Source: an uncultured Acidobacteriota bacterium
GTDB lineage: Bacteria > Acidobacteriota > Thermoanaerobaculia > Multivoradales > Multivoraceae
NCBI GenBank assembly: GCA_963851415.1
Contig: CAWKPF010000002.1
Coordinates: forward strand, 2,374,526 to 2,438,525
Direction of reading: 5' to 3'
Length of the DNA: 64,000 nt
Shown piece after piece: positions 13,030-64,000 of the stretch. A program made the translations under genes and the position numbers. Numbering within the stretch: the stretch's first letter is position 1; every line of letters starts with the position of its first letter. The notes beneath the pieces are model-generated. The model worked only from the letters and a program-made list of their open reading frames with translations, did not search any database and was not told the DNA's origin.

Positions 13030-13031
13030 CC

Positions 13032-14384: not shown

Positions 14385-14527
14385 CGGGGAGTACTCCAGA
14401 GACGGCCAGGCAGGAGACCTGACCGGAGGGATCGACAGGGCGATGCGACGATTATAGTGAGGCTCTTCGCTGACCACCTATCGAACGAGGCCTCTGGCCC
14501 ACAGTCCCTGTGATCGAGGAGATTCGC

Positions 14528-29693: not shown

Positions 29694-31145
29694 TCAGAGG
29701 GTCGAAGCCGGCACCGGACCGCGCGGGACTGGTGTCTGGACACTCTTGCCGAGGAACTCTTCGTTGGTCGGGGGGGTCGCCCCACGCTCACGGGCGAGAC
29801 GCTGCTGCTTCTCGAGGAATCCGCGCAGCAGATCTTCTCGCTGAAGTCCCTGCAGCGCGACGACCTTCTCCCAGCTCGACTCTCGCACATGCGCCTCGAG
29901 TGTCTCCTCCTCGGAGGAAAAAAGGTGTTGGCCAAGCGTCACTACCCACTCGCCGGGCTCGACACCCGTGATACCCACGCTCTGGCGCCCCTCGGCGAGA
30001 ACCTCGACGGGGCGAAACTCGATCGGAAAGGCCTCCTCCGAGAGCTCGGCCGTTGCCACCGAGCCCAGATCCGCGGAGGTCACATCCGACGTCGGTGCCA
30101 AGCCAGAGACCGGACGACCCGACTCGGAGTAGCCCGCCGCCACGAAGACCCCGATCAATCCTGTCCTGGGGTCTTCCCAGAGAGCACTGGTCGGGACCAG
30201 GGTGGCTCGCTCGCTCTCGCCGTAGAGCACGTCGACCGTCACGAACATCCCGGGTCGGAGCGGACCATCGGTGTTCGCGACGTCGACCTCTCCGATGGTG
30301 CTGAAGCTGGTGGACTCGAGAAACGGCGAGATGCGTGACAACACTGCGCGCACACTGCCCTCGCCGAGAGACGAGGAGGAGATCTCGACTGGCAGCCCTT
30401 CGTCGATGTAGGCCAGCATTCCTTCGGTCAGGGGTACCTCGACGATGAGGGAGTTCAGATTGCCGATCTGGAAGAGCAGCGTGCCCGGGTCGACCAGCAT
30501 GCCGACCTCCACGTTGCGCTGCCCCACGCTGCCGGAGATCGGCGCGCGAACCAGGGTATCGGCGAGCTGAGAGCGCCGCTCCTGCACCGTTGCCTCGGCC
30601 TGCTGGACGCGAGCGCGGGCCGCCGCGGCAGACGCCTGGGTGGCCTGCAGCCGAGCTTCCTGGGTCTCGAGATCGACCTCACTGACCAGGTCCTGCTCCG
30701 CCAGAGCTCGGGTGCGCGTCACCTGGGCTTCGATTTCCGCCACTCGCGCCACGGCTTCCGCAGCGGAGGCTTCGGCCAATGCGACAGCCGCTTCGGCCTG
30801 ACGAAGCTGATCCTGGAGGGCATCGTCTTCGAGGCGCACCAGCGGCTGGCCAAACTCGACCAGCTGTCCGCTTCGAACCATGACCTCGAGCACGGGAGCA
30901 CTGATCTCCGGATAGATCGCCACCTGGTTCTCTGCCCGGACGACACCACTGAGGCGCTCCTGTAGCGGGAGTGCTCCGACCCTGGCCTGTACGATCTCGA
31001 CAGCGGGAATCGGACCCTGCTCGCGGTCTTCGAACGCTTCCTCAGACTCTCCGGAGCCGCAAGCCACCGTGCTCATGGCGATCGCTGCGACTGCGAGTGC
31101 CCAGCGCCTTTTCCAGAGCCGGCCCCCCGTCGTTTGACCCCGCAT
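29694..31145 (-). CDS. RND efflux periplasmic adaptor (membrane fusion protein)
   Basis: Signal/lipobox AIAMSTVACGSG, coiled-coil hairpin (LRQAEAAVALAE…ARLQATQASAAAARARVQQAEA) and biotinyl-lipoyl-like motif VRAPISGSV. Start trimmed to MRGQTTGG (31145). Confidence 0.8.
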   Translation of the reverse strand: MRGQTTGGRLWKRRWALAVAAIAMSTVACGSGESEEAFEDREQGPIPAVEIVQARVGALPLQERLSGVVRAENQVAIYPEISAPVLEVMVRSGQLVEFGQPLVRLEDDALQDQLRQAEAAVALAEASAAEAVARVAEIEAQVTRTRALAEQDLVSEVDLETQEARLQATQASAAAARARVQQAEATVQERRSQLADTLVRAPISGSVGQRNVEVGMLVDPGTLLFQIGNLNSLIVEVPLTEGMLAYIDEGLPVEISSSSLGEGSVRAVLSRISPFLESTSFSTIGEVDVANTDGPLRPGMFVTVDVLYGESERATLVPTSALWEDPRTGLIGVFVAAGYSESGRPVSGLAPTSDVTSADLGSVATAELSEEAFPIEFRPVEVLAEGRQSVGITGVEPGEWVVTLGQHLFSSEEETLEAHVRESSWEKVVALQGLQREDLLRGFLEKQQRLARERGATPPTNEEFLGKSVQTPVPRGPVPASTL

Positions 31146-31420
31146 CGAACTCACCTCCTCGAAATCAGACCGAGCGATCCTCCTCTGGGGGAAGGCCCGC
31201 TCCTGGGAACTTCTCCTATTTCTTCGATCCGGTACGCCGATCGGATGCCGGCGTACCCTTGAACCTACGCGATTTCCCAAAGGGCGGATGCAAGAAGCGT
31301 GTAAAACAGGTCCTGAGAGGGAGGCGCGAGCCGCCCGAGGCGGCCTCTAGCGGCAGCGACGGGCATGGGCCGCCGCGTGGCACGACGCACACTCTAGTAG
31401 TCTGCCCACCGGAGTTGCCC

Positions 31421-33835
31421 GTGGCCAGATTCAAGAAGAAGCGCGCCCAGAGCGCGTCTAGAAAGCGCAGCCCCTCCCCGAAGGCGCCCGAGCGCGCGAC
31501 CGAGCCCGAACGGCCCTCGGAGCCCTCGCCGAACCCGTGGCTCGCGGCCCTCGGTGTAGCGGCTCTCGTCGCCCTTCTCGTCCTGTCGACCGTCTGGCTC
31601 TCCCTCCGAGAAACCGGAGGCGCACAAGACCCATCGGAGCCGGCCGGCGCCGAGCCCCCGACCGAGGCGATCCGCGCCGAGGACCCGGCACGCGACTCCC
31701 ACGAGCGCATGCTGGCCGCGCTTCAGGAGATCCAACGCCGCACCGACACGGAGAACCCCTATCAGGGCACCTATCTCGCTCAACAAGCGCGCGCCGCCCT
31801 CGCGGCACTGCCCCCGGACGCCCCTGCCGGGTCTCGATTCAGGGCGCTGCGCGAGGCGGGGGACCACGAGCTTCGCCTGGGCAACGAGGCCGAAGCGATT
31901 GCTCGCTTCACCGAGGCCTACGAGCTGCTGCCCACCGCCGCTCCCGAGCTGTCGCGAGAGGAAGGACTCCGCCTCGTGTTCCGCCTGGGCCTCGCCCACC
32001 TGCGTTTCGGGGAAACCCGCAACTGCGCCCTCGATCACTCCGGCGAGAGCTGCATCCTGCCGCTCCGCGGCGGCGGCCTGCACCGCGAGCCCGAGGGCTC
32101 CCGCGAGGCGATGCGCTACTTCACCCAGGTCGCCGAGCTGGCGCCATCGGGCCATCCGATCTTCCTCAAGGCGATCTGGCTGCTCAACCTCGCCGCGATG
32201 ACCCTGGGCGAGCACCCCGATGGAGTGCCGCCCGAGCTGCTCATCCCACTGCCTCTGTATGGCTCCGACGCTGAACTGGTCCGCTTCGACAACGTGGCGC
32301 CGCATCTGGGGCTCGACACCTTCAACCTGTTCGGCGGCATGGTGGTAGATGACTTCACGGGCGACGACCTTCTCGACGTCGTCACCACGACCTTCGAGAC
32401 CTCCGGACAGATGCGCTTCTTTCGCAACGACGGGGACGGCACCTTCACCGACAGGACTCGCGAAGCCGGCCTCGAGGGGCTCTACGGCGGGCTCAACGTC
32501 CTGCAGGCCGACTACGACAACGACGGCGATCTCGACCTGTATGTGCTCCGTGGCGCCTGGCTCGAAGACGTCGGCCGACATCCCAATTCCCTGCTGCGCA
32601 ACGAGGGGGAGGGCCGTTTCGTCGATGTGACCTTCGCCGTGGGGCTGGGCCAGGAGCACTACCCGACCCAGACCGCCTCGTGGGCCGACATCGACAACGA
32701 CGGCGATGTCGATCTGTTCGTCGGCAACGAATCGAACGTCAAGCTGCCGGACGCACCCAGCCAGCTGTTTCGCAACGACGGCGAGAGCTCCGAAGATCGA
32801 CACTTCACCGAGATCTCGCTGTCCGCTGGGATCGACCACCGGAGTTTCGTCAAGGGAGTGGTCTGGGGAGACTACGACGGCGACCGCTTCCCTGACCTCT
32901 ACATCTCGACCCTGGGCGGCCCCAACCGACTGCTGCGCAACGACGCGAACGGACCGGGCGCCGATGCCACCTTCACCGACGTCACCGCCGAGCTCGGTGT
33001 CTCCGAGCCTCTCGATTCCTTCCCGGTCTGGTTCTGGGACTTCGACAACGACGGCTCCCTCGACCTCTACGTACCGAGCTACCGAGGCATCACCGATGCG
33101 GTCAGTGCGGTGGTGGCGAGCTACCTGGGACTCGAGCCGATTCTCGAGCTACCGCGCCTCTACCGTGGAAACGGCGAGGGCGGATTCGAGGAGGTCGCTG
33201 CTCGGAGCGGTCTCACGCGCATCCACATGCCGATGGGAGCCAACTTCGGCGACCTCGACAACGACGGCTTTCTCGACTTCTATCTCGGCACCGGCTACCC
33301 CGACTACGAGTCGCTCATGCCCAACGTCATGTACCGCAACGCCCAGGGACGACGCTTCGAGGACGTAACGCTCGCTGGGGGATTCGGCCACCTGCAGAAA
33401 GGCCACGCGGTGGCGTTCGCCGACTTCGATCAGGACGGCGACCAGGACGTCTTCGAGCAGATGGGAGGCGCCTTTCCCGGCGACCGATTTCACGACGCCC
33501 TGTTCGAGAACCCGGGATTCGGGAACCACTGGCTGAGCCTGCACCTCGTCGGAGAGCAGTCGAATCGCGCCGCGATCGGAGCCCGGATTCACGTCCGAAT
33601 CGAGGAAGCCGGCCGGGAGCGTTCCATCTACAAGCACGTCAACAGCGGTGGCAGCTTCGGCTCCAACCCCCTGCGCCAGACTCTCGGCCTCGGCCAGGCC
33701 TCTCGGATCCTCGAGCTCGAGATCTACTGGCCGACCAGCAATCTGACGCAGAGCTTCGAGGGAATCGAGCCAAATCGGCTCTATCGGGTCGTCGAAGGTC
33801 GAGACGGACTTCAGGAGCTGGCCTCGCTTCGATAG
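31421..33835 (+). CDS. CRTAC1-family protein (FG-GAP/VCBS beta-propeller repeats plus ASPIC/UnbV C-terminal domain) with N-terminal TM anchor and TPR-like region
   Basis: Repeated FRNDGDGTF / DYDNDGDLD / DIDNDGDVD / FDNDGSLD / DLDNDGFLDF calcium-binding FG-GAP motifs. C-terminal …WLSLHLVGEQSNRAAIGARIHV…NSGGSFGSNPLRQTLGLG… is UnbV/ASPIC. GTG start at 31421 with GGAG 6 nt upstream; the ORF-track 5' extension overlaps the adaptor gene on the other strand. Confidence 0.7.
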   Translation: MARFKKKRAQSASRKRSPSPKAPERATEPERPSEPSPNPWLAALGVAALVALLVLSTVWLSLRETGGAQDPSEPAGAEPPTEAIRAEDPARDSHERMLAALQEIQRRTDTENPYQGTYLAQQARAALAALPPDAPAGSRFRALREAGDHELRLGNEAEAIARFTEAYELLPTAAPELSREEGLRLVFRLGLAHLRFGETRNCALDHSGESCILPLRGGGLHREPEGSREAMRYFTQVAELAPSGHPIFLKAIWLLNLAAMTLGEHPDGVPPELLIPLPLYGSDAELVRFDNVAPHLGLDTFNLFGGMVVDDFTGDDLLDVVTTTFETSGQMRFFRNDGDGTFTDRTREAGLEGLYGGLNVLQADYDNDGDLDLYVLRGAWLEDVGRHPNSLLRNEGEGRFVDVTFAVGLGQEHYPTQTASWADIDNDGDVDLFVGNESNVKLPDAPSQLFRNDGESSEDRHFTEISLSAGIDHRSFVKGVVWGDYDGDRFPDLYISTLGGPNRLLRNDANGPGADATFTDVTAELGVSEPLDSFPVWFWDFDNDGSLDLYVPSYRGITDAVSAVVASYLGLEPILELPRLYRGNGEGGFEEVAARSGLTRIHMPMGANFGDLDNDGFLDFYLGTGYPDYESLMPNVMYRNAQGRRFEDVTLAGGFGHLQKGHAVAFADFDQDGDQDVFEQMGGAFPGDRFHDALFENPGFGNHWLSLHLVGEQSNRAAIGARIHVRIEEAGRERSIYKHVNSGGSFGSNPLRQTLGLGQASRILELEIYWPTSNLTQSFEGIEPNRLYRVVEGRDGLQELASLR

Positions 33836-51803: not shown

Positions 51804-53366
51804 GTGCCGAAGAACGGACTTCATCGCCCGCTTTCGCTGTCTGCGCAGCGTGTTCCCGACCGGCTGGCTGTCTCGGATCCGAGTCGGGGCCGGACGATCA
51901 GCTACAAGGAGTTGGACTCTCTCTCCGATCGTCTGCGCGACCGGCTGCGGGCGATCGGCGTCGTGCCTGGGGACCGGGTCGGAATCTGCCTGGGCAAATC
52001 GATCAGCAGCGTCGCCTCGGTGTTCGGAATCCTCAAGGCCGGCGGCGGCTATGTGCCGGTCGACTCCACGGCTCCGCCAGAGCGCAACGCGTTCGTCTTC
52101 AGCAACTGCGAGGTCGCGGCGGTGCTCGTGGAGGAGCGTTTCGAGGAGGCACTACGGCAGGAGCTTTCGACAGCGGGGAGCACGCCTCCGTTGTTGGTGC
52201 TTCAGACCGAGACGGAAGAGGACCCCCTGCGGGCAGCTCTCGACCGGGCGGACCAGGAGAGTGCGGCCGAGCCCGTGCCTACGTTCGAGGCCGAGCCCGG
52301 CGACCTGGCCTACATCCTCTATACCTCGGGTTCGACGGGAAAGCCGAAGGGCGTGACTCTGTCGCATGAGAACGCGACCTCTTTCGTCGAATGGTGCTCA
52401 GAGGTCTTCTCGCCTCGTGAAGACGATCGGTTTTCCTCGCATGCGCCTTTTCACTTCGACCTCTCGATCCTCGATCTCTACCTTCCGATTCGACACGGCG
52501 CCTCCATCCACCTGATCGGCGAGCAGCTCGGAAAGAACCCGGCGGGCATGGTGCAGCTCCTGTCAGAGGCCGACCTGACGGTCTGGTACTCGACCCCTTC
52601 CGTGCTCAGATTGATGCTCGAGCATGGAGGTCTGGCGGATCTCGAGAGCCACTCTCTTCGCTACGTGCTCTACGCTGGCGAGGTCTTTCCGGTCAAGCAC
52701 CTCAGAGAGCTGGCGAGAGTCGTCACGGGGCCTCGCTATTTCAACCTCTACGGCCCGACGGAGACCAACGTCTGTACCTATCACGAGACACCTGCGATCG
52801 TGCCTGATGAGCGTTCGAAGCCCTATCCGATCGGCAGGGTTTGCTCCCACCTGCGGGCGCGAGTGGCCGACGAGGACGGGAAGCCCGTTGCCGTTGGCGA
52901 AGAGGGAGAGCTCCAGATCTCGGGCCCAGCGGTCTTGCAGGGGTACTGGAACCAGCCGGAACGGACCGCCGCCGCTTTCATCGAGGACGACACGGGAAGG
53001 TGGTACCGGACGGGTGACCTCGTCATCGAAGACGAAGAGCGGGTCTACACCTTCGTGGGGCGACGGGATCGTATGGTGAAGCGGCGCGGGTACCGCATCG
53101 AATTGGGCGAGATCGAGGCCGCCTTCTACCGGCATCCCGAGATCTCCGAGGCCGCAGCGGTGGCGGTGTCGGATCAAGAGGGGGTCACCATCAAGACCTT
53201 CTACTCGACCCGCGAGGGCACACCGCTCTCGATGATCGAGCTCAAGCGTTTCTGCGCGGCGCGTCTGCCGATGTACATGATCCCGGACCGGTTTACGCAC
53301 CTGGAGGTTCTCCCAAAGACCTCGACCGACAAGATCGACTATCAGCTTTTGAAAGAGGTCGAATAA
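51804..53366 (+). CDS. DltA-like adenylation enzyme (AMP-dependent synthetase/ligase, carrier-protein ligase)
   Basis: AMP-binding motif LAYILYTSGSTGKPKGV; YRTGDLV…; 520 aa, same length class as DltA or stand-alone NRPS A-domains. Start is 10 nt after the carrier gene. Confidence 0.8.
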   Translation: MPKNGLHRPLSLSAQRVPDRLAVSDPSRGRTISYKELDSLSDRLRDRLRAIGVVPGDRVGICLGKSISSVASVFGILKAGGGYVPVDSTAPPERNAFVFSNCEVAAVLVEERFEEALRQELSTAGSTPPLLVLQTETEEDPLRAALDRADQESAAEPVPTFEAEPGDLAYILYTSGSTGKPKGVTLSHENATSFVEWCSEVFSPREDDRFSSHAPFHFDLSILDLYLPIRHGASIHLIGEQLGKNPAGMVQLLSEADLTVWYSTPSVLRLMLEHGGLADLESHSLRYVLYAGEVFPVKHLRELARVVTGPRYFNLYGPTETNVCTYHETPAIVPDERSKPYPIGRVCSHLRARVADEDGKPVAVGEEGELQISGPAVLQGYWNQPERTAAAFIEDDTGRWYRTGDLVIEDEERVYTFVGRRDRMVKRRGYRIELGEIEAAFYRHPEISEAAAVAVSDQEGVTIKTFYSTREGTPLSMIELKRFCAARLPMYMIPDRFTHLEVLPKTSTDKIDYQLLKEVE

Positions 53367-54515
53367 ATGAACCTGGACTTGACCAAAGAACAAGTCGCCC
53401 TTGCGGGCGAGATTCGTCGTTTTGCTCGCGAAAGGCTCAATGAGGGTGTCCTCGAGCGCGATCGAGAGCAGACTTTCTCCCGAGAGCTCTGGAAGGAGTG
53501 CGGTGAGATGGGTTTGACCGGCCTTCCCGTTCCGATCGAGTACGGGGGGACCGGGTTGGATCCGCTGTCGACTGCCGTTGCGCTGGAGGCCTTGGGTCAC
53601 GGTTGCGAGGACTCCGGACTGGTCTTCTCCATCTGCGCCCATTTGCTCGCCTGCGCGGTGCCAATCTGGAAGTACGGGACCGACGAGCAGAAGGGCAGAT
53701 ACCTTCCGGGGCTTTGCGACGGAACCCTCATCGCGGCCAACGCGATGACCGAGCCCGACTCGGGCTCCGACGCCTTTGCACTCCGAACTCGTGCCGAGCG
53801 AGACGGCGACGGCTACCGGCTCAACGGCACCAAGATCTTCGTGACCAATGGCCCGGTGGCCGATCTGGCTCTGGTGTTCGCGGTGACGGACCCCGAGAAG
53901 GGTTATCACGGAGGCATCACTGCCTTCGTGGTGGATGCCGACACCGAGGGTTATCGCAAGGGCCAGCAGTTCGAGAAGCTCGGTCTGCGAACTTCTCCCA
54001 ACGGAGAGCTGTTCTTCGAAGACATGTATCTTCCCCCGACGGCGGTGCTCGGTGGCGAGGGAGGAGGATCCCAGGTCTTCGTCAGCGCGATGGAGTGGGA
54101 GCGAGGTTGCCTGTTCGCCAGCCACGTGGGCACCATGGAGCGGCTGCTCGAGAAGGCCATCGAGTATGCACGCACTCGGAAGCAGCAGGGCCAGACCATC
54201 TCGAAGTTCCAGGCCGTCTCCCACAAGATCTCGGACATGAAGATCCAACTCGAAGCGGCGCGACTGCTCACCTACAAGTCCGCATGGAACCTCGAGCGGT
54301 CGAGGAGGGTGTCTTTGGACGCTGCCATCTCGAAGACCTTCGTCAGCGAATCGTTGGTACGGAGCGCGCTCGACACCATTCAAGTGTTCGGGGGCTACGG
54401 GTTTCTCGCCGAATACGAGATCGAGCGCACCCTGCGCGACTCGGTGGGAAGCACGCTGTACTCGGGCACTTCGGAGATCCAACGCAACATCATTGCCGGC
54501 TGGCTCGGGCTGTAG
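53367..54515 (+). CDS. acyl-CoA dehydrogenase family flavoenzyme
   Basis: 382 aa with ACAD N/M/C domains (…GLTGLPVPIEYGGTGLD…, …AANAMTEPDSGSDAFALRT…, …QVFGGYGFLAEYEIERTLRDS…). Start ATG directly abuts the ligase stop (TAAATG). Confidence 0.85.
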   Translation: MNLDLTKEQVALAGEIRRFARERLNEGVLERDREQTFSRELWKECGEMGLTGLPVPIEYGGTGLDPLSTAVALEALGHGCEDSGLVFSICAHLLACAVPIWKYGTDEQKGRYLPGLCDGTLIAANAMTEPDSGSDAFALRTRAERDGDGYRLNGTKIFVTNGPVADLALVFAVTDPEKGYHGGITAFVVDADTEGYRKGQQFEKLGLRTSPNGELFFEDMYLPPTAVLGGEGGGSQVFVSAMEWERGCLFASHVGTMERLLEKAIEYARTRKQQGQTISKFQAVSHKISDMKIQLEAARLLTYKSAWNLERSRRVSLDAAISKTFVSESLVRSALDTIQVFGGYGFLAEYEIERTLRDSVGSTLYSGTSEIQRNIIAGWLGL

Positions 54516-54708
54516 GGGGTGGCAGGCAGGTAACTGGCCCCTGGTGCGATGTTGCGACGGTTCCAGATCGCCGGCGAAACGCTCGTCATATCTCGGTGGC
54601 CGAAGTCCGCTGGATGTCCGTCGGCAGGCGCACCGAATGGTGGCCGAGCTCGGCTAGTTCGGGGACCGACGGCTCAGAGCCCGCCGGCCTCCAACATGCC
54701 GAGCTCCT

Positions 54709-55728
54709 TCACCTCGGCGCGCCCGAGGTCACCTGCCACTGGTTGAGTCTTCCGGACTCGAAGTTGTCGCCGAACACGGTCGCCCTCGATCTGAACCAGT
54801 CCCGTGACGTGGCGTCTGTCTTCAGGAAGTCCATCAACATTCCCGCGACCTTCGCTCGCCCGATCATCGACGGGTGCGTGCCATCGGCTCCGAGATCGCT
54901 GCAGGCGTACTCCAGGCCGTCCGAACGACCCGGTTGACCGCCCGGCTGTCCGTCCGGGCCGAGACCGTCCGCCCAGAGATACGGGCCCCACGCCAGCCAG
55001 GGAGCTCGAACCGTTCCGGCGGCGGGATTGAAGTTCAGACCCGGGTCGCCGGCCAGTTGATCCTCGATCAGCCACTTCACCGCGAACCCACCCTGATAGG
55101 CAAACGGTTCGGGGTTGAGCGGCAGATTGGCATAGCCGGCGTAGATGCGGCTGCTCAAGTAGGCGATCTCGAGGTTCGGAAAGCGCTCCTTGAGGGTCTG
55201 AACGGTGGTGCGCAGGAGGTCGCGCAGCCAGAGGCTCCGTTCCGGAAACGTCTGCGGTGAAAAGGGGCCGGCGGAGGCGGCGAGCTTGATCCAGGCGACC
55301 TGGACCTGCATCGGCGTGAGGCCGGCCGCGCTCAGCTTCGAATCGAGAAGGCTCCAGGCCAGACTCCCCGGGTCGGCCCACGAGACGGCGTCCATGCTTC
55401 CCTCCGCCCCGTTGACGGGAACGATGTGCGGCTTGATATCCGGGTCGTCGCTGGCCATCGAGATGAAGGTGTCGAACTCACCCTCTGTGTTCGACATCCC
55501 AACGGACAGCAGTCCGATCTTCCCCGAGGTGGGGGCCGCCTGTCCTTGCGGATCCAAGGGTCTGAGCGAGCGAGCGAAATACAGGCCGGCCGACTCGTGC
55601 GCTCCCGGCCGCGTGTTGGACCCGCCCGGATAGAGTCCGCCCTCTTCTCCCTGGTAGGTACCCCTGCCCAGGTCGGTGAGGGGGACCAGTCCAACGGAGG
55701 TGTTGCTGCACGCTCCCCCGGCTCCTCC
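54709..55728 (-). CDS. secreted SGNH hydrolase, copy B (N-terminally truncated, in-frame continuation of copy A)
   Basis: Block I IGLLSVGMSNT, block V DGTHPSMIGRAKVAG (DxxH). 95-100% identical at nucleotide level to 55729-56785 and 63168-64000. Confidence 0.6.
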   Translation of the reverse strand, partial: GGAGGACSNTSVGLVPLTDLGRGTYQGEEGGLYPGGSNTRPGAHESAGLYFARSLRPLDPQGQAAPTSGKIGLLSVGMSNTEGEFDTFISMASDDPDIKPHIVPVNGAEGSMDAVSWADPGSLAWSLLDSKLSAAGLTPMQVQVAWIKLAASAGPFSPQTFPERSLWLRDLLRTTVQTLKERFPNLEIAYLSSRIYAGYANLPLNPEPFAYQGGFAVKWLIEDQLAGDPGLNFNPAAGTVRAPWLAWGPYLWADGLGPDGQPGGQPGRSDGLEYACSDLGADGTHPSMIGRAKVAGMLMDFLKTDATSRDWFRSRATVFGDNFESGRLNQWQVTSGAPR

Positions 55729-56785
55729 GGTCGAGCTCGATCCGAACCAGTCCCGTGACGTGGTGTCCGTCTTCAGGAAGTCCATCAACATTCCCGCGAC
55801 CTTCGCTCGCCCGATCATCGACGGGTGCGTGCCATCGGCTCCGAGATCGCTGCAGGCGTACTCCAGGCCGTCCGAGCGGCCCGGTTGACCGCCCGGCTGT
55901 CCGTCCGGGCCGAGACCGTCCGCCCAGAGATACGGGCCCCACGCCAGCCAGGGAGCTCGAACCGTTCCGGCGGCGGGATTGAAGTTCAGACCCGGGTCGC
56001 CGGCCAGTTGATCCTCGATCAGCCACTTCACCGCGAACCCACCCTGATAGGCAAACGGTTCGGGGTTGAGCGGCAGATTGGCATAGCCGGCGTAGATGCG
56101 GCTGCTCAAGTAGGCGATCTCGAGGTTCGGAAAGCGCTCCTTGAGGGTCTGAACGGTGGTGCGCAGGAGGTCGCGCAGCCAGAGGCTCCGTTCTGGAAAC
56201 GTCTGGGGGGGAAGACGGGCCGCCCGAGGCGGCGAGCTTGATCCAGGCGACCTGGACCTGCATCGGCGTGAGGCCGGCCGCGCTCAGCTTCGAATCGAGA
56301 AGTCTCCAGGCCCGACTCCCCGGGTCGGCCCACGAAACGGCGTCCATGCTTCCCTCCGCACCGTTGACGGGAACGATGTGCGGCCCGATATCCGGGTCGT
56401 CGCTGGCCATCGAGATGAAGGTGTCGAACTCACCCTTCGTGTTCGACATCCCGACCGACAGCAGTCCGATCTTCCCCGAGGTGGGGGCCGCCTGTCCCTG
56501 CGGATCCAAGGGTCTGAGCGAGCGAGCGAGATCGAGGCCGGCCGACTCGTGCGCTCCCGGCCGGGTGTTGGACCCGCCCGGGTAGAGTCCGCCCTCCTCT
56601 CCCTGGTAGCTACCGCTGCCCAGGTCGGTGAGCGGGATCAATCCAACGGAGGTGCTGCTGCACACTCCCCCCCGGTGCACGAGGTGGGACTCGGCGCCCG
56701 CAGGGCCGGCGAGCACCATGAGTGCAACGAGGACCGTGGGCGCCAGCCCGAGCCCGAGCCTCTCCGGGCGTACTCTGAATCTCAT
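55729..56785 (-). pseudogene. secreted SGNH hydrolase, copy A (signal peptide intact; +1 frameshift in G7 tract 56205-56211; C-terminal 20 aa replaced by fusion to copy B)
   Basis: MRFRVRPERLGLGLAPTVLVALMVLAGPAGA signal with GGAGAG RBS. Copy C and copy B read …KLAAS(G/A)GP(S/F)SPQTFPERS… across cttcccccc (G6/none), whereas copy A has cttccccccc (G7), shifting the frame. Confidence 0.6.
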
Positions 56786-57022
56786 TATAGGACTCTCCAA
56801 AAATCGACAAATGCAAGATAGATCACAACCAGATCTCCCATTGTTGCCGATCTGGCGGCCCGATAGCCAGCCCCGGGGAGGGAGACCGCCGGGGGACCAC
56901 TGCGGGAACGGCCCGGTTCTCGAGGGCGTCGCGCTACGGAAGCGGCTCGTATGCAGGTACCTTCGAGGCTCGCGCCGAAGTGGATTCCGATCGATTCTGT
57001 CGGAGTTCTAGGAGCACAGTGC

Positions 57023-57260
57023 TCCGTGCGGCGTGACGAGCGGGAGCGTCCCGGCGAGCTGCTGCACCTGGGCACCAAGAAGCTCGCCCGGATCCCGAAG
57101 GGCCCGGGGCCCATCGGCATCCATGGGGATCGCTCTCGGCGGGTCAAGGGGGCTGGGAGCACGCCCACGCGGCCGTGGACGACCACACTCGCCTCGCTCT
57201 CATCGAGGTCCTACCGGACGAGTCGGTGACGCGCTTCCTGCGCCGTTGCGTGGCGGGTAC
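57023..57260 (+). mobile_element. IS481-family transposase remnant (rve integrase-core fragment, truncated at both ends, one frameshift)
   Basis: Frame 1: …VRRDERERPGELLHLGTKKLARIPKGPGPIGIHGDRSRRVKG. Frame 3: (GWEHAHAA)VDDHTRLALIEVLPDESVTRFL. Compare IS481 …PGELVHIDVKKLGRIPDGGGWRAHGR…GYDYVHSAVDDHSRLAYSEILPDEKGATAAAFL. Frameshift at aagggggctgg (~57146). Confidence 0.55.
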
Positions 57261-57354
57261 GCCGAGCTGGATCTGCTACTGCAAATCTCGAGAGGTCTCC
57301 CCCATGGCACAGACTCCGAGCCGCCGCCTGAACAACCTCATGAGACGTAACATC

Positions 57355-57399
<45 letters not shown>

Positions 57400-57526
57400 C
57401 CCTTCCATCGAGCCCCCATGTACTGGCAGCGAAGCCGCAGGCGGGCTCGACCATCCCGCTTGGAGTTGGAAACCCGACGCGACGAACGGGAGGTCACCCT
57501 TGGGTGCTCCCGCTCGTCGCGAGGGA

Positions 57527-58978
57527 TCAGGGCAGGGTGTAGGTCACCACCAGCTCGGGATAGTTCGCCGAACTGGGAGTCTCTCCGGAGTAGTAACCGA
57601 ACGCGTCGTTGGCTTCGTCGTCGTCGTCGTCGAGCTCGAAGTACACCCGCATCTGGGTGATGCCGGTGGGGTCGATGGCCGCCAGGCCAGCGCTGTCGAG
57701 CGTGCCTTCGGACCAGTCGCGAATGTTCGGGGCCCCTGACAGGGTCGCCGACTGCGTCACCGTCGCCGGGCTCTCGAAGTCGCTCGGCTGCAAGGCCGGA
57801 TTGCCGCTGAAGCCACCGGTCTGCACGTCGACGTGACAGGCTCCGAGTGCCAAGAACGGATTTCCCCCGAATTGAGGACCGCGCCGAATCCTGAGGGTCG
57901 CCATCTCGATCACCGCGCCCTCGGGTAGCAGCGACGTGTCGAAAGAGAAGATCGCCTTGATCTGCTTGTCCAACCCGTCGTCGCCGATCCGCACGGCCGG
58001 CCCCTGACTGATGACACCACCGACGTTGCTGTCCTCGCTCGACTCGAACACGGTACCGTCGTCGGCGCCGATGGAATAGAGGATCATCTCCTGCACTCCG
58101 CCAGCGGGACCGACGACCAGCGAGATCGAGTCGACGTTGACGTTGCCGTCGGCATCGGTCGCGGTAGCCGTGATCAGGTGCGAGCCCTCCGAAAGAGCGG
58201 CGGAGAACGAGCCTCCGGTGCCGATGGCGCCGTCGAGGCTCGACTCCCAGGCCAGACTTGCCGTGACGTCACCGTCCTTCGCGTCGTTCGCCGACCCGAG
58301 GAAGGCGATGAGCTCGCCCGCATCGAAGGGCTCGCCGTCCGTCGGTGCGCCGATGGTCACCACCGGTGCCGCCGTGCCCTCGAAATAGCTCAGCGCGTGA
58401 TCGAACGCTTCCGGACCGATGGCGTAGCCCATGAGGCGCCCGGGAATGTCGTCCGCCGGCGGATGGATGCCGCCCCAGATGCGCGAGAGGCTCGTCTGGT
58501 CCGACGCGTCGTGGTAGGTCGCCCACTGCAGCGTCGATCGTCCACGCTCGGGCCGTCCTCGAACACGAGGAACTCGTTCTGCGGCGCCGGGAACTCGCCG
58601 AGCCCGCCCGGGAAGTACGTCGAGCCCGTGAGCAGCGTCATGCACCTCGGCGGCCGCGCGGCTGTAGGTGCTGTGCCCGGAGACGTAGCCGGCGAAGGGC
58701 GGCGTCACGAAGGTCGGCCGCTGATAGGGCCACCAGTCCTCGGCGAGGATCCAGCCGACGCCGGCGACGTCGGTCGTCCGGGTCTGCGATGAAGTCGGGG
58801 CCGCGCCAGGCGCGGATCGCGATCTTGCCGACGTCGCGCGGCGAGGTGCTCGTGGCGCTCGCCCGGCGCGCTGCTCGTCGGCCGTGACGACCTCGATCGA
58901 AGCCCGGACGCAGCGCGATGCCGTCCGGGTCGTAGCGACGGGACCTGGCGGATCGGAGCACTGGCCGCGCTCGGCCAT
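57527..58978 (-). CDS. intact C-terminal portion of a secreted PAP2/vanadium-haloperoxidase-like protein (PAP2 motifs, Ig-like domain, conserved ~170-aa beta-sandwich domain)
   Basis: PAP2 signature pieces …YQRPTF…VSGHST…SRIWGGIHPPADD (KxxxxxxRP…PSGH…SRxxxxxHxxxD). Ig-like segment …AWESSLDGAIGTGGSFSAALSEGSHLITATATDADGNV…. Ends …MRVYFELDDDDDEANDAFGYYSGETPSSANYPELVVTYTLP. Confidence 0.55.
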   Translation of the reverse strand: MAERGQCSDPPGPVATTRTASRCVRASIEVVTADEQRAGRAPRAPRRATSARSRSAPGAAPTSSQTRTTDVAGVGWILAEDWWPYQRPTFVTPPFAGYVSGHSTYSRAAAEVHDAAHGLDVLPGRARRVPGAAERVPRVRGRPERGRSTLQWATYHDASDQTSLSRIWGGIHPPADDIPGRLMGYAIGPEAFDHALSYFEGTAAPVVTIGAPTDGEPFDAGELIAFLGSANDAKDGDVTASLAWESSLDGAIGTGGSFSAALSEGSHLITATATDADGNVNVDSISLVVGPAGGVQEMILYSIGADDGTVFESSEDSNVGGVISQGPAVRIGDDGLDKQIKAIFSFDTSLLPEGAVIEMATLRIRRGPQFGGNPFLALGACHVDVQTGGFSGNPALQPSDFESPATVTQSATLSGAPNIRDWSEGTLDSAGLAAIDPTGITQMRVYFELDDDDDEANDAFGYYSGETPSSANYPELVVTYTLP

Positions 58979-60190
58979 GGTAGCGGATCGCGGAGATCGG
59001 ACGGATGTAGTCGTACCAGCCCTTGATGCCCCAGGCGGCGATCGCCACGTCGTGCATCGCGCCGCCGAGCATGAGGTAGACCTTCACGTCCCACTCGAGG
59101 TCGTCGAGCGATCGGCCCCGTCCCGCCGATGCGCTTCTCGACGAGCGGATGATCGGTGACGTAGTTGGCGATCGTGAACCAGTGCCCGGGCGGCGTCTCG
59201 GAGTCCGGGCCGTCGGCCCAGAACTCGGCGAGCACGCGCGCGTAGTCGCCGCGCGGGCACGATCTGCGGCGTGTAGGGCTGGCCGGTCACCGGGTTCACG
59301 GGTAGCCCGTGCCCCAGTCGCCGCCGTCCTCGAAGTCGTAGTAGGCCGCCAGTCGCCCGGATCCGGCAGCGGGCGTTGCCGATCGAGGCGGGCGAGATGT
59401 CGATCATCACGCCGTCGGTCGGGTCGAGGTGGCCGACTCCAGACGACGCCGACCATGCTCGAAGCCGTCCAGGTAGTCGTCGCCGTCGGCGGCCGAGCAG
59501 CGGCGGCGGCCCCGGATCGTGGTAGACCCAGTAGTCGAAGCCGTCGCGCGTGGTAGATCGTCAGGTCGTCGGGCGTCGAGCGCGAACGGCGTCGACCTGG
59601 CCCCACTCCGGGACTCAGGAATGGCGGGAAGCCGCCGGGGATCGGGTTGCCGCACTGGTCGATGAAGAAGTCGAGCGCGAGCGGCTGCCAGCGGTTCGGA
59701 TCGACCAGGTCCGGGTTGCCGGGCAGCGCCGGCGAGCAGCGGCGGGTTGACCGGCTCGTAGTACAGGTTCGCGTAGCCGTTCGGCCTCGTTCGAGCCGTC
59801 GGCGAGGCCGAACGCGATGCACGGCCGCGGCGATGCGGTTGCCGAGCGCCGCGGGCGGTCGCGTCGCCCGCGGTCGTCGTGAATCGCGTGTCGTAGCCGA
59901 GCTCGGCCATCCGATCGTCGCACGAGACGGCAGTGATACGCGCGCCCGGCGAGCTCGCGAAGCGGCAGCTCAGGATGCGGTAGGCCGCGTAGCTGATCGC
60001 CTCTTCGCGGGCCGCCGGCACGTCCGCCGCCGTGGCGCTCTCGTCGTGGAGGATCGTGGTCGGCCGTGCCGTCGTAGGCCGCCCAGGCGTCCCACATCGC
60101 CACCGAGACGTGGAAGAGGTTGCGCGCGTGCACCGTCGGCCGCGCGAAGTCGCGGCGGATCGCCGTCGAGCAGCTCCTCGTTCCACTGCC
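57527..60190 (-). pseudogene. PAP2/vanadium-haloperoxidase-like gene whose 5' two-thirds (58500-60200) is scattered over at least 4 reading frames
   Basis: Real-looking haloperoxidase pieces in different frames: ARNLFHVSVAMWDAWAAYDG (59615-60445 frame), YANLYYEPVNPPL (59407-60186 frame), LDDLEWDVKVYLMLGGAMHDVAIAAWGIKGWYDYIRPISAIRYHG (58638-59822 frame), LAEFWADGPDSETPPGHWFTIANYVTDHPLVEKR (58705-59235 frame). Confidence 0.45.
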
Positions 60191-62974
60191 GGGCGACGGA
60201 ACCCTCGGTCTCGACGGCGAAGTACGACACGACCAGCTGAGGTCGGGACGCGGAATCGGCGGCCTCGCCAGGATAGTAGCTGACGAAGTCGGTGAGGTTG
60301 TCGTCATCGTCATCGATCTCGAAGTAGACCCGCATCTGGGTCGTGCCGGTGCGACTGATGGCGGACAGACCGAGAAGATCGAGCGTGGCTTCGGACCAAT
60401 CACCGTTGGCCGAGGCCGAGGAGAGAACCGCCGCTCGCGGCGCATCCGCAGCAGCCTGGAAGTCGGAGGCCTGAAGGGCCGGATTCCCGCTGAAGCCGCC
60501 CGTCTTCACGTCGACATAGGCAGTGCCATGCGTAGTGAACGGATCGGACCCCCCGGATCCGCCGCGCTGGATTCGCAGGACCGCAGACTCGATCACCGCT
60601 CCTGCGGGTAGCACGGACGTGTCGAACGAGAACACGGCGACGGTCTGACGGTCCTCGTTGTCGTCGCCGATCCGAATCGCGCCACCGCCCGACAGGCTCT
60701 GGTTGAAGACCCCTCCGACGCCGCTGTCCTCGCTCGACTCGAAGACCCTTCCGTCCTCGGTACCGATCGACAGCAACGTCTTCTCGATCGTCTCACCCGT
60801 CGGAACGGTCACGTCGATGATCACGGAGTCCTCGGCCAGATTGCCGTCGCCATCGACCACCGATGCGGTGATCTCGTGCGTGCCTTCGGTCAGCGACACG
60901 GAGAGGTTGCCCCCGATGCCGAGATCGCCGTCGCGATCGGAGGTCCAAAGAATGCTCCCCGCCAGATTACCGTCCTCTGTATCGCTGGCAGTGCCGGCGA
61001 AGTCGATGAGCGTGCCGGTCGTGGAGGTCGAACCATCCGCAGGGGAGGTGATCGTCACCGTGGGAGGAAAGCCCCCCGCCGGAGTGACCACGAGATTGAC
61101 CGCGGCCTGCCCGACATTGCCGTCGATGTCGGTGACGGAGGCGAGGATCACATGCGCGCCCTCCGACAGCACCGCCGAAAAGCTGCCTCCCGAACCGATG
61201 GCTCCGTCGAGGCTCGACGTCCACGTGAGATCGCTCGAAAGATCGCCCTCGTCGGGGTCGTCGGCACTGCCCTCGAAGTCGATCAGATCGCCCGCCATGA
61301 ACAGCGCACCCTGGCTCGGCTGGACGATGGTGACCACCGGCAGCTCGGCAACCTCCTGCACCGTGTAGACCTGGTTCACTGCGACGCCGACCAGCGAGGT
61401 GTCCACCAATCCGCTCGGCCAGAAGACCTCGACCAGATCGACCACTGCCGCATCGCCGAGGCCGAACGACAGCCGCAGGCTGTCCTGGGAGTGCGCGCTG
61501 CTGCCACCCAGCACCTGCCGCACGTATTGATTGCCACCGGCAGTGACGCGGACCAGAGCGCCAATGGCGCTCCTGTTCGAAGCGCCCGGAGTCCCAGCGC
61601 CCTGGAGATCGAACTGCACCCAGTTGTTGGTCGGCGCGGTGTCGTTGCGCAGAAGCTGAACCGTTCTTCCATGTTGCACGACGATGATGTCGACATCTCC
61701 GTCCCGGTCGTAGTCGGCAATCGCGCTTCCTCGACCCTGGCTCCCGCTTCGACTGGGAATCCCGACCTTGGTGAACGTACCGTCACCATTGTTCCGGAAC
61801 AGGTCGTTGGACCCTGAAGCGATCCGCGACACGAAGAGGTCCTCGTACCCGTCGCTGTCCACATCCACGAAGTTCGCCCCCCACGACTTGGCGGACGCGA
61901 TCCCACGATCACAGGCCGAGTCGTCCGCGAAAAGGATGCTGGCGCCACCGAGATTCTCGTACAAGGCGTTCGTGCCGCCGCAGGAGTTCAGCGGCTCCCA
62001 ATCCGTGACGTAGACATCGAAGTCGCCGTCGAGGTCGATGTCCCCGATGGTGAGCCCCATCGCGAAGCGGGAGTCGTTACCGACGCCTAGCGAGTCGCCG
62101 GCCACGTCCAGGAATCCTGTTCCGTTCTGGTTCTCGAAGATCTGGTCCTGATCCTGGGGCGTGATGTTGCCCACGTAGACATCGGGCCAAAGGTCGGAGT
62201 TCAGGTGGCCCGCGATCGTCACCAGAGCATCCCGGATGATCAAATCGAGACCGACCTGCGTCGAGACATCCTCGAACTGGCCGTTGCCGAGATTGCGAAA
62301 GAGTCGGTCCTGCACCCAGGGACTGTTGTTGCCCTCATTCCAGTGCCCGACGTAAAGGTCGACGTAGCCGTCGCGATCGTAGTCGAGCCAGTTGGCGCTG
62401 ACCGAGACGTACGACGGGCCATCCGGCAACGGGGACGGCAACAGATCATCGACCCCGGCCGCCGCGGCGACCTCCTCGAACAGGGGCTCCCCCGGGATCA
62501 CCTGATGTCCGTTTTCCACCCAGAGGTTGCGCAGCAGCTGATTCGGAGGCGAGCCGTTGCCCTTTTTGGTCCCTTGGACGGGCACCGCAACGTAGATGTA
62601 GATGTCCTGATCACCGTCGTTGTCGTAGTCGGCAAAGACAGAGCCCATCATCTCGATCGCGGGGTCCAGCGGCAGCAGCTCGTCCACATTGGTGAAGGTG
62701 CCGCCGTCGTTGCGGAACAGGTGATACGGCATATTCGTGGTGCGTCCATGCCGTTGACCGCGAACAGGTCGTCCCAGCCGTCGTTGTTGAAGTCGATCCA
62801 GTTCAATCCGAGGCCGTGGAAGGACTCGGCGACGAACACGTATCCATTCAGACCCTGTGCGGCGGTCTGATCCGTCAGGACGATCGCGGGGCTTTGCGCC
62901 GCGAGCGGGGCCACGAGCCCGACGGTAAGGATCAGAATCAGCAACGGCTCGATCATCTCTCTCTGCGATCTCAT
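60190..62974 (-). CDS. very large secreted CRTAC1-like multidomain protein (FG-GAP/VCBS propeller, ASPIC/UnbV, three Ig-like domains, ~170-aa beta-sandwich domain); frameshift near 62735; possibly continuous with the haloperoxidase-like gene downstream
   Basis: Signal MRSQREMIEPLLILILTVGLVAPLAAQS (ORF 62648-63133) ending …NNDGWDDLFAVNGMDAP, then frame switch to MPYHLFRNDGGTFTNV… (ORF 59970-62732). Repeated D(Y/F)DxDGxxD motifs; ASPIC/UnbV block …SNRSAIGALVRVTAGGNQYVRQVLGGSSAHSQDSLRLSFGLG…; Ig-like repeats …SSLDGAIGSGGSFSAVLSEGAHVILASVTDIDGNV…. The domain …LLSIGTEDGRVFESSEDSGVGGV…MRVYFEIDDDDDNLTDFVSYYPGE…PQLVVSY also occurs in 57527-58978. Confidence 0.55.
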
Positions 62975-63167
62975 GGGCGTCCTCTCACGAATCCGCGGCT
63001 GCGGACACTGAAGAAATGAACTGATTCGGAACAGCTCATATCGATACTGCAAGGAACATGCCCAACGAGCACGGCTGGCCGCCCCTCCAGAGATGGCCGG
63101 GGGCTCCTGAGAGGAGAGCCGGATCGAGCGCACCGAACCGTGGCGAGCTCGGCTACTGCGGGACGGC

Positions 63168-64000
63168 TCAGTGCCCGCGGACCTCGAGCATGCCGAGCTC
63201 CCTCACGGAGAGCGCGCCCGAGGTCACCTGCCACTGGTTGAGGTTTCCGGACTCGAAGTCGTCGCCGAACACGGTCGAGCTCGATCCGAACCAGTCCCGT
63301 GACGTGGCGTCTGTCTTCAGGAAGTCCATCAACATTCCCGCGACCTTCGCTCGCCCGATCATCGACGGGTGCGTGCCATCGGCTCCGAGATCGCTGCAGG
63401 CGTACTCCAGGCCGTCCGAACGACCCGGTTGACCGCCCGGCTGTCCGTCCGGGCCGAGACCGTCCGCCCAGAGATACGGGCCCCACGCCAGCCAGGGAGC
63501 TCGAACCGTTCCGGCGGCGGGATTGAAGTTCAGACCCGGGTCGCCGGCCAGTTGATCCTCGATCAGCCACTTCACCGCGAACCCACCCTGATAGGCAAAC
63601 GGTTCGGGGTTGAGCGGCAGATTGGCATAGCCGGCGTAGATGCGGCTGCTCAAGTAGGCGATCTCGAGGTTCGGAAAGCGCTCCTTGAGGGTCTGAACGG
63701 TGGTGCGCAGGAGGTCGCGCAGCCAGACGCTCCGTTCTGGAAACGTCTGGGGGGAAGACGGGCCGCCCGAGGCGGCGAGCTTGATCCAGGCGACCTGGAC
63801 CTGCATCGACGTGAGGCCGGCCGCGCTCAGCTTCGAATCGAGAAGGCTCCAGGCCCGACTTCCCGGGTCGGCCCACGAGACGGCGTCCATGCTTCCCTCC
63901 GCCCCGTTGACGGGAACGATGTGCGGCTCGATATCCGGGTCGTCGCTGGCCATCGAGATGAAGGTGTCGAACTCACCCTTCGTGTTCGACATCCCGACCG
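63168..64000 (-). CDS. secreted SGNH hydrolase, copy C (intact C-terminus; N-terminus beyond window end)
   Basis: …GMSNTKGEFDTFISMASDDPDIEPHIVPVNGAEGSMDAV…DGTHPSMIGRAKVAGMLMDFLKTDATSRDWFGSSSTVFGDDFESGNLNQWQVTSGA…. The only copy retaining the ancestral C-terminal tail. Confidence 0.7.
   Translation of the reverse strand, partial: VGMSNTKGEFDTFISMASDDPDIEPHIVPVNGAEGSMDAVSWADPGSRAWSLLDSKLSAAGLTSMQVQVAWIKLAASGGPSSPQTFPERSVWLRDLLRTTVQTLKERFPNLEIAYLSSRIYAGYANLPLNPEPFAYQGGFAVKWLIEDQLAGDPGLNFNPAAGTVRAPWLAWGPYLWADGLGPDGQPGGQPGRSDGLEYACSDLGADGTHPSMIGRAKVAGMLMDFLKTDATSRDWFGSSSTVFGDDFESGNLNQWQVTSGALSVRELGMLEVRGH

Follow-up and report, generated by a model that had tools for sequence, protein, structure and literature searches.

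Frame-corrected reading of a heavily frameshifted CRTAC1-like/VHPO-like fusion gene points to consensus errors of assembly in a probably intact gene

Is a gene that appears to be broken by some 27 frameshifts really a ruin, or does the damage lie in the assembled sequence and not in the organism? This question is raised by a minus-strand locus in the 64,000-nucleotide stretch of DNA analysed here (the window), which a preliminary description had depicted as either a pseudogenised giant secreted enzyme or an error-rich stretch. In our view, and judging by sequence comparison, the locus very probably holds one real, probably intact gene for a secreted fusion protein of ~1,810 aa, the ~27 frameshifts of which would be consensus errors of the assembly and not mutations in the organism. 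The features on which this reading is built are collected in Table 1.

Table 1. Features of the locus, with their positions in the window.
Feature	Position	Strand	Basis or remark
Whole gene	57527..62974	(-)	stop codon 57527-57529; frame-corrected product is a secreted fusion protein of ~1,810 aa
Putative Sec signal peptide, MRSQREMIEPLLILILTVGLVAPLAAQ	62894..62974	(-)	by inspection: charged n-region, hydrophobic core, AAQ-S cleavage-like site
CRTAC1-like part: FG-GAP/VCBS beta-propeller repeats, then UnbV/ASPIC (61362-61568)	61362..62807	(-)	Pfam
Isolated frameshift, lacking one G that L001 has: GGACGGCAC -> GGACGCAC	62744	(-)	1-nt deletion; L001 in frame
Two Ig-like (Big_7-type) domains	60804..61340 (61080-61340 and 60804-61064)	(-)	Big_7 E 4.2e-11; internal repeat seen in translation
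Module copy 1, a divergent DNRLRE/CBM96-type beta-sandwich inside the protein	60222..60779	(-)	NF033679; similarity to copy 2
VHPO/PAP2-like domain (DUF6851 + VCPO_2nd)	58376..60194	(-)	26-27 frame switches (60167-58538); frameshift-aware alignments
Noisy patch	58440..60222	(-)	L001 alignment in 250-nt bins and at base level; GC 71.6% vs 63.5% upstream
Third Ig-like domain	58106..58366	(-)	Big_13 and Glucodextran_B matches below cut-off; 60% identical to first Ig-like domain
Module copy 2, DNRLRE/CBM96-type beta-sandwich	57539..58087	(-)	ends 3 aa before stop

The domain reading of the preliminary description was largely borne out: all the elements that it had described were recovered in place on the minus strand by Pfam, BLASTP and translation, and a CRTAC1-like part is indeed fused to a PAP2/VHPO-like part and a recurring module. 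Frame correction yields a translation of 1,810 aa in which the terminal stop is the only stop, and the domain order is probably signal peptide, FG-GAP propeller plus UnbV/ASPIC, Ig, Ig, DNRLRE/CBM96-type module, VHPO/PAP2-like domain, Ig and module. In this corrected protein Pfam recognises FG-GAP_3, UnbV_ASPIC, Big_7 and DUF6851, with VCPO_2nd below the cut-off. The N-terminal 80 aa, read from the ATG at 62974 (MRSQREMIEPLLILILTVGLVAPLAAQS), resemble a Sec signal by inspection. The 920-aa ORF at 59970-62732 alone contains FG-GAP_3 in four stretches (E 6.6e-28), UnbV_ASPIC (1.4e-17) and Big_7; on the corrected protein, FG-GAP_3 again covers four stretches (E 9.7e-29, 100 bits) and UnbV_ASPIC spans residues 470-538 and profile positions 1-68 of 68 (E 3.6e-17, 62.5 bits). 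The best relatives of the CRTAC1-like part are only 45% identical and are found in Rhodothermales MAGs (GTDB species representatives). Two Ig-like domains, not the three that had been claimed, precede module copy 1, a third coming after the VHPO part. Elsewhere in the window, at 30971-33835, lies a second, stand-alone member of the CRTAC1/ASPIC-UnbV family.

When stitched together by hand, the VHPO-like sequence is 75% identical, at 100% coverage, to intact homologues named 'vanadium-dependent haloperoxidase', a name that is the automatic annotation of these homologues. DUF6851 matches the corrected protein at E 1.9e-11 (45 bits against a cut-off of 27, positions 2-140 of 140), and VCPO_2nd reaches 22.6 bits, under its cut-off of 27; the 75%-identical homologues carry both models. 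All the PAP2 motifs are present, namely KGWYDYIRP at 58998-59024, GYVSGHS from 58690 and SRIWGGIHPPADD from 58486, and a close homologue (P0004) matches the solved VHPO 9l8x at E 8e-13. With an apparently complete PAP2-superfamily active site, the domain is predicted, from domain content only, to serve as a vanadate-dependent haloperoxidase or phosphatase; on the same kind of reasoning, the whole protein might be an extracellular enzyme tethered to an anionic polysaccharide or matrix by its two CBM-like modules and the propeller. The literature search returned no mention of DUF6851 and no biochemical data on the subfamily.

The recurring module, earlier put at ~170 aa and regarded as unplaceable in a known family, actually measures ~186 aa and is, by its profile matches, probably a divergent DNRLRE/CBM96-type domain of predicted carbohydrate-binding type, an outcome that the preliminary description had itself named as counting against its view. 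The two copies are 60% identical (BLASTP E 1e-70). Profile NF033679 matches copy 1 at E 4.9e-07 (30.0 bits, profile 18-163 of 164) and copy 2 at E 4.2e-05 (23.7 bits), both below the 34-bit cut-off, and it matches all 18 module family members at E <= 0.01, the best of them at 1.2e-15. Pfam CBM96 (PF24517) gave no match to either copy in the window and partial matches in two relatives (P0132 and P0143). In its beta-sandwich fold the module matches the solved structures 7VBO and 8WAB; a search of the module profile against PDB sequences gave nothing significant, and the link to these two structures is drawn because of the fold and the NF033679 support, not because of a sequence match to the structures. 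In 130 of 149 relatives the module stands at the C-terminus, and the subfamily is found nearly always at the very C-terminal end, with a conserved ...RPQLVVTY ending. The module family is very large (at least 6,425 clusters), mostly C-terminal and without a Pfam model of its own, and it belongs to the DNRLRE/CBM96 fold.

As for the damage itself, each of four different intact homologues, used as guide, gave 26-27 frame switches within 60167-58538, 21-23 of them single extra bases, and at least one further compensated set (-2/+1/+1) lies near 59940-59960. What had been taken for peptide segments spread over at least four frames is really this number of switches among three frames. Once corrected, the gene has no in-frame stop and retains all 178 columns with a conservation of 97% or more across 120 homologues; the homologues themselves deviate at 0.9 of these columns on average. 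Of the two fates proposed earlier, an error-rich sequence is supported and pseudogenisation is not, given the lack of stops, the full set of conserved columns and the absence of the extra bases from a second assembly (L001) with identical flanks. GC and homopolymers as such do not explain the errors; what the noisy patch overlaps is the catalytic domain, conserved across phyla, and not a compositional feature. We rejected homopolymer errors as the main source, since no more than 11 of the 41 single extra bases lie in a homopolymer. Nor do we rely on the idea that both alleles had been retained, each extra base being the third-codon base of the other allele, which by eye holds for ~9-10 of 21, a suggestive figure but near chance. 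Sixteen of the 21 extra bases differ from the preceding base, which is near chance expectation.

Only one further public assembly, L001, covers the locus; it was reached via the cluster member P0125. It is 100% identical to the window over 54250-58400 and 60225-64000, intergenic DNA included, and the missing G at 62744 is one of only two differences in 60230-64000; inside 58440-60222, the one stretch of the gene where the two diverge, there are ~10% mismatches and many indels. Nearly all of the extra bases of the window are absent from L001, which has nine frameshifts of its own at different positions, and the extra base at 59587 is common to both, compatible with either a systematic error or a real feature. 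The reverse situation is seen in the AMP-ligase and acyl-CoA dehydrogenase genes, which in L001 carry 19 frameshifts and no stops and in the window are intact. The mismatches between the two assemblies favour third codon positions by no more than a factor of about 2; therefore, part of the ~10% difference may be noise and not allelic divergence. It should be kept in mind that the two assemblies may have samples or methods in common, and hence may not be independent. An exact junction 30-mer had no match in JGI metagenome contigs, so a third assembly was not obtained, and exact look-ups of the 920-aa ORF, a 483-aa ORF and P0121 returned no contig.

We regard genuine, recent pseudogenisation, with the organism itself carrying ~27 indels, as extremely unlikely. 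The frameshifts do stand in the public record, where the gene calls P0121 and P0153 agree with them, two other isolated ORF-breaking indels occur in the window (62744 and 56213), and one frameshift position is common to L001; yet 27 neutral indels should bring many substitutions, and neither an in-frame stop nor a single lost column (0/178) is seen. The flanks are identical to L001 and L001 is without the indels, and therefore the indels cannot have built up at the locus itself. Metabolic genes of L001 show frameshift damage of this kind, likewise free of stops, and the strong +1 insertion bias of the window gene is opposite to the deletion bias with which bacterial pseudogenes are usually described. 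The perfect conservation of the frame-corrected protein is the only point in favour of real indels bypassed by recoding, whether programmed frameshifting or transcript editing, which we find scarcely conceivable: the frameshift sites have no common motif, the extra bases are absent from L001, and we know of no system that handles ~27 mostly +1 sites of unrelated context in a bacterial gene.

Other readings concern how the parts came together. A relative ~60% identical (L082) has, in a single frame, a tandem array of no fewer than 3.9 copies of an Ig-module-VHPO unit ~2,919 nt long, the window protein resembles 1.5 such units, and a gene repeated three times flanks the locus, all of which would suit a collapsed tandem or paralogous repeat, that is, at least two Ig-module-VHPO units whose VHPO parts were blended by the assembler. 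We nevertheless judge this quite improbable, for the two sides of the VHPO part are only ~60% alike (module 1 vs 2, Ig2 vs Ig3), and a simple collapse would therefore lack identical anchors; L082, moreover, is a 1x-coverage contig that may itself be an artefact, and a collapsed repeat would be a variant of the artefact explanation, not a biological one. Very improbable, too, is that two separate genes, one CRTAC1-like and one VHPO-like, were united by a lost stop or a chimeric join at ~60222. In favour of such a join are the unusual internal position of an otherwise mostly C-terminal module and the start of the noisy patch exactly at the junction; furthermore, at 80 loci with CRTAC1-like genes in other genomes neither the module nor a VHPO-like gene lies nearby (no VHPO-like gene within 10 kb), so that there is no general CRTAC1-VHPO linkage. 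The junction itself (...PQLVVSYFAVETEGSVARQWNEELL) speaks for a single gene, being clean and in frame in the window and in L001 alike, with no stop between ...PQLVVSY and ARQWNEELL, with neither a start codon nor a signal peptide before ARQWNE, and with a single 1,184-aa ORF spanning it from module to VHPO in L001. An independent protein, ~60% identical (P0191), has the same module-then-VHPO order with a linker of ~8 aa, and in two more proteins (P0017 and P0033) UnbV_ASPIC is combined with a domain of this VHPO family. Finally, it is unlikely that the ~10% divergence of the catalytic domain is real and reflects allele replacement by recombination of an unusually conserved, horizontally exchanged VHPO-like cassette, in a family that may build iterated Ig-DNRLRE-VHPO polyproteins as in the L082 array; even then, the frameshifts would have arisen from the assembly of a cassette that is polymorphic or repeated.

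Returning to consensus errors in an intact gene, we envisage that a second, ~10% divergent version of the very conserved VHPO domain was mixed into the consensus, a version that might have come from a strain living alongside, from a paralogue or from other members of the community. The errors would then be limited to the one stretch where a divergent version was available, by a route of mixing that we infer. Flye, for its part, merges close strains into consensus contigs (PMC8302730). Every other gene of the window that was tested is a full-length Pfam match (AcrB 3-1018 of 1021, DUF885 1-532 of 532, the ABC transporter operon and others), and frame flips proposed by a GC3-phase HMM at 7.8-13 kb turned out to be gene boundaries, for Pfam identified an unbroken ABC transporter operon and further genes in that interval. 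The lesson is one of caution: a gene that by all appearances is heavily pseudogenised in a public contig of 4.7 Mb is, most likely, intact, and the fact that the damage falls exactly on a cross-phylum-conserved domain suggests that metagenome assembly tends to corrupt the consensus locally at domains of this kind. Beyond this, the locus documents a CRTAC1-like propeller fused to a VHPO/PAP2-like enzyme, and it leaves current understanding unchanged.

Compared with known systems, the damage is like that of strain-collapsed long-read metagenome assemblies, in that it consists of indels only, where co-assembled relatives diverge, and strikes different genes in both assemblies, although the insertion bias of the window and the route of mixing go unexplained by this likeness. 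The N-terminal part follows the CRTAC1/ASPIC-UnbV family in its usual order, FG-GAP_3 repeats and then UnbV_ASPIC, and departs from it in being extended at the C-terminus by a long stretch that includes a catalytic domain. With respect to DNRLRE (NF033679) and CBM96 (PF24517), the copies in the window remain under the cut-off of the former and unmatched by the latter; they share only 12-14% sequence identity with the solved CBM96 structures, the alginate-binding 7VBO and the chondroitin-sulfate-binding 8WAB, and their partner domains here are not lyases. There is also a likeness to the bacterial VHPO family (DUF6851 + VCPO_2nd): the corrected sequence is 68-75% identical, over the full length, to thousands of intact members and retains the KxxxxxxRP, SGH and SRxxxxxHxxxD motifs, and a close homologue matches the solved VHPOs 9l8x, 9ptr, NapH3 8cxl and 4cit. 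Typical members of that family, however, are stand-alone secreted proteins of ~630-770 aa with a signal peptide of their own, whereas in the window a CRTAC1-like part and a DNRLRE-like module precede the domain, and an Ig-like domain and a further module come after it.

A six-frame ORF listing and a three-frame translation of the minus strand were used to read the layout of the gene (57527-62974), and together with the domain matches they bore out the overall arrangement proposed in the preliminary description. From a start codon at 62974 (-), an N-terminus resembling a signal peptide, MRSQREMIEPLLILILTVGLVAPLAAQS, leads, after a single loss of frame near 62744, into a 920-aa ORF and the features listed in the table below. 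Ig-like domains are indeed present, but two rather than the three proposed precede the first module, and the module measures ~186 aa instead of ~170 aa; its two copies are 60% identical (E 1e-70). Eight codons past the end of copy 1, with no stop codon in between, starts ARQWNEELL, with which mature members of a large "vanadium-dependent haloperoxidase" (VHPO) family (Pfam DUF6851 + VCPO_2nd) usually begin. A second CRTAC1-like gene, intact, stand-alone and of 954 aa, lies at 30971-33835 (+), with matches to FG-GAP_3 (E 1.4e-40) and UnbV_ASPIC.

Features of the secreted fusion gene and of a group of biosynthetic-type genes in the window
Feature	Position	Strand	Basis or remark
920-aa ORF	62732-59970	-	Pfam: FG-GAP_3 (E 6.6e-28), UnbV_ASPIC (1.4e-17), Big_7
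Module copy 1, ~186 aa	ends at 60222	-	Translation; after two Ig-like repeats, ends ...RPQLVVSY
Third Ig-like repeat		-	Translation; downstream of VHPO-like part
Module copy 2	57539-58087	-	Ends three residues ahead of stop at 57527
Trp-halogenase-like FAD enzyme	10346-12775	-	Domain match
Radical-SAM protein	11977-13521	-	Domain match
Asparagine-synthase-like gene	13032-14477		Adjoins halogenase-like and radical-SAM genes

A frameshift-tolerant protein-to-DNA alignment, written for the purpose and guided by four intact homologues (P0001, P0004, P0005 and P0017), revealed 26-27 frame switches per guide in the VHPO-like part, running from 60167 to 58538 at positions that agree within a few bases across the four guides; 21-23 of them are single extra bases and the remainder single missing bases. 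Comparison with L001, a second public assembly of the locus, added at least one compensated set (-2, +1, +1) near 59940-59960; the protein alignment had missed this set by taking it up as mismatches. The density thus amounts to about one frameshift per 65 bases in the VHPO-like part versus essentially none elsewhere, the gene having one outside this part, at 62744.

Pseudogenisation of the enzyme and an error-rich stretch had been put forward as alternative explanations. After frame correction the gene contains no in-frame stops, the three PAP2 motifs (KGWYDYIRP, GYVSGHS and SRIWGGIHPPADD) are intact, and the conserved residue is kept in all 178 columns with at least 97% conservation in an alignment of 120 intact homologues, which themselves depart from it at a mean of 0.9 such columns. 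This absence of substitutional decay argues against a pseudogene, since 27 neutrally gained indels should bring many substitutions too. L001, an 18.2-kb contig (ENA assembly ERZ25039600) found through another member of the public gene call's cluster, matches the window at 100% identity across 54250-58400 and 60225-64000, barring a handful of single differences, whereas inside the patch at 58440-60222 about 10% of bases differ, with many indels. Because these flanks are identical over kilobases, intergenic DNA included, the indels cannot have built up in place. Base by base, hardly any of the extra bases in the window appear in L001, which has nine frameshifts of its own at other positions. Furthermore, two L001 genes whose window counterparts are intact, encoding an AMP-dependent ligase and an acyl-CoA dehydrogenase, together contain 19 frameshifts but no stops, from which we infer that stop-free, indel-only damage where relatives differ is a property of both assemblies; the divergence between the two climbs gradually, not abruptly, from 4% to 21% along L001 13900-16400 (window 51804-54515). 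All other tested window genes give full-length domain matches, and the two isolated indels outside the patch, one G too few at 62744 and one T too many at 56213, each disrupt an ORF that is kept open in L001, where neither occurs. On all these grounds error is favoured over decay: the dense frameshifts are very likely a consensus or assembly artefact, belonging to the record and not to the organism, and the gene is probably real and intact.

As to what made the patch so noisy, its edges coincide with those of a cross-phylum conserved domain (ARQWNE... to ...IHPPADDIPGR), and its GC content is 71.6% in the window, versus 63.5% upstream and 68.3% in the L001 version. Mismatches between window and L001 show a roughly two-fold enrichment at third codon positions (103, versus 53 and 45 at the other two), suggesting that real allelic divergence accounts for some of the difference. 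Ordinary homopolymer miscalling was rejected, as only 11 of the 41 single extra bases lie inside homopolymers. Reads of a second version of the VHPO-like domain may have been mixed into the consensus; they could stem from a strain living alongside, from a paralogous unit or from other organisms in the community with the same very conserved domain. Flye is reported to merge close strains into consensus contigs (PMC8302730). A comparison of the extra bases with the synonymous base of the other allele gave a pattern that was suggestive but not beyond chance. A further possibility is that genuine cassette exchange lies behind the divergence confined to this domain.

The reported continuation from the module into PAP2/haloperoxidase-like sequence holds in both assemblies, each of which reads clean and in frame across the junction; L001 has one ORF of 1,184 aa that begins with a start codon, spans the module and extends into the VHPO-like domain. 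ARQWNE is preceded by neither a start codon nor a signal peptide. The same order, with a linker of ~8 residues, occurs in P0191, an independent protein of ~60% identity, and UnbV_ASPIC is joined to the DUF6851/VCPO_2nd VHPO family in two metagenomic homologues. The pairing is not general, since no VHPO-like gene lies within 10 kb of any of 80 other CRTAC1-like loci. Since the module usually ends its protein, the domain order gives the impression that two former genes, CRTAC1-Ig-Ig-module and VHPO-Ig-module, were joined, the end of the first to the start of the second. In a ~55-60% identical relative, L082 (1-11375; ENA ERZ26222911 ctg974884_1x_c), we found at least 3.9 tandem Ig-DNRLRE-VHPO units of ~2,919 nt, 95-97% alike with many indels, the last two sharing one uninterrupted 1,791-aa frame. 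The array could be genuine, encoding an iterated multi-catalytic polyprotein, or else an artefact, the contig having 1x coverage; possibly the VHPO family forms iterated arrays of this kind.

Neither module copy has a Pfam match, and the preliminary description could not place the module in a known family. The NCBIfam DNRLRE model NF033679, however, matches both copies below cut-off (E 4.9e-07, 30 bits, positions 18-163 of 164 for one; E 4.2e-05 for the other) and all 18 family members tested (best E 1.2e-15). DNRLRE was originally reported from surface proteins of archaea and bacteria (PMC2447325), and the CBM96 paper itself links the CBM96 module to it (PMC9971899). Given these matches and this published tie, the module is very probably a divergent DNRLRE/CBM96-type subfamily of a known fold family, membership of a well-known domain being what the preliminary description had named as counting against its claim; TGF-beta-family prodomains are far lower-ranking matches. 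A profile search over 1.84 billion representatives recovered 6,425 clusters (50% identity) at E <= 0.001 and 2,173 at E <= 1e-30, a very large family without a Pfam model of its own. Among 149 top relatives, 52 have at least two copies and 130 have the last one within 5 residues of the C-terminus, usually ending ...RPQLVVTY. Partner domains include peptidase M14, BNR, fn3, cadherin-like and Big_7, the module sitting at the extreme C-terminus behind many unrelated catalytic or adhesion domains. That it sits there hints that it may do more than bind glycans, e.g., serve in sorting or anchoring.

Around the gene, a ~1.1-kb gene for a secreted protein, for which no Pfam match was found, occurs in three minus-strand copies of 95-98% identity, two in tandem downstream (54628-55719 and 55728-56906) and one upstream (63128-64000); the copy at 55478-56800 is broken by the single extra T at 56213, which L001 lacks. 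About 130-170 nt 3' of the gene's stop lies an (AG)22 microsatellite (57356-57399); the L001 version is 9 nt shorter. The halogenase-like and radical-SAM genes at 10346-13521 (-), with their asparagine-synthase-like neighbour, may constitute a small natural-product cluster, which would share the window with the haloperoxidase-like gene.

The hand-stitched VHPO-like part is 75% identical to intact homologues over 100% of its length, and at least 8,000 proteins match it at E <= 0.001. Its DUF6851 + VCPO_2nd family is unusually conserved (68-75% identity, full length, in homologues P0001-P0120) among MAGs labelled Planctomycetota, Phycisphaerae and Myxococcota and in Tara Oceans data; DUF6851 found no mention in the literature searched. 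Judging from its domains, the protein is probably a secreted enzyme, which would be anchored on an anionic polysaccharide or matrix by its two CBM-like modules, perhaps with help from the propeller. Its complete PAP2-type active site would make it a predicted vanadate-dependent haloperoxidase or phosphatase, and the solved structures that a near homologue matches best are VHPOs, namely 9l8x (E 8e-13) as well as 9ptr, NapH3 and 4cit.
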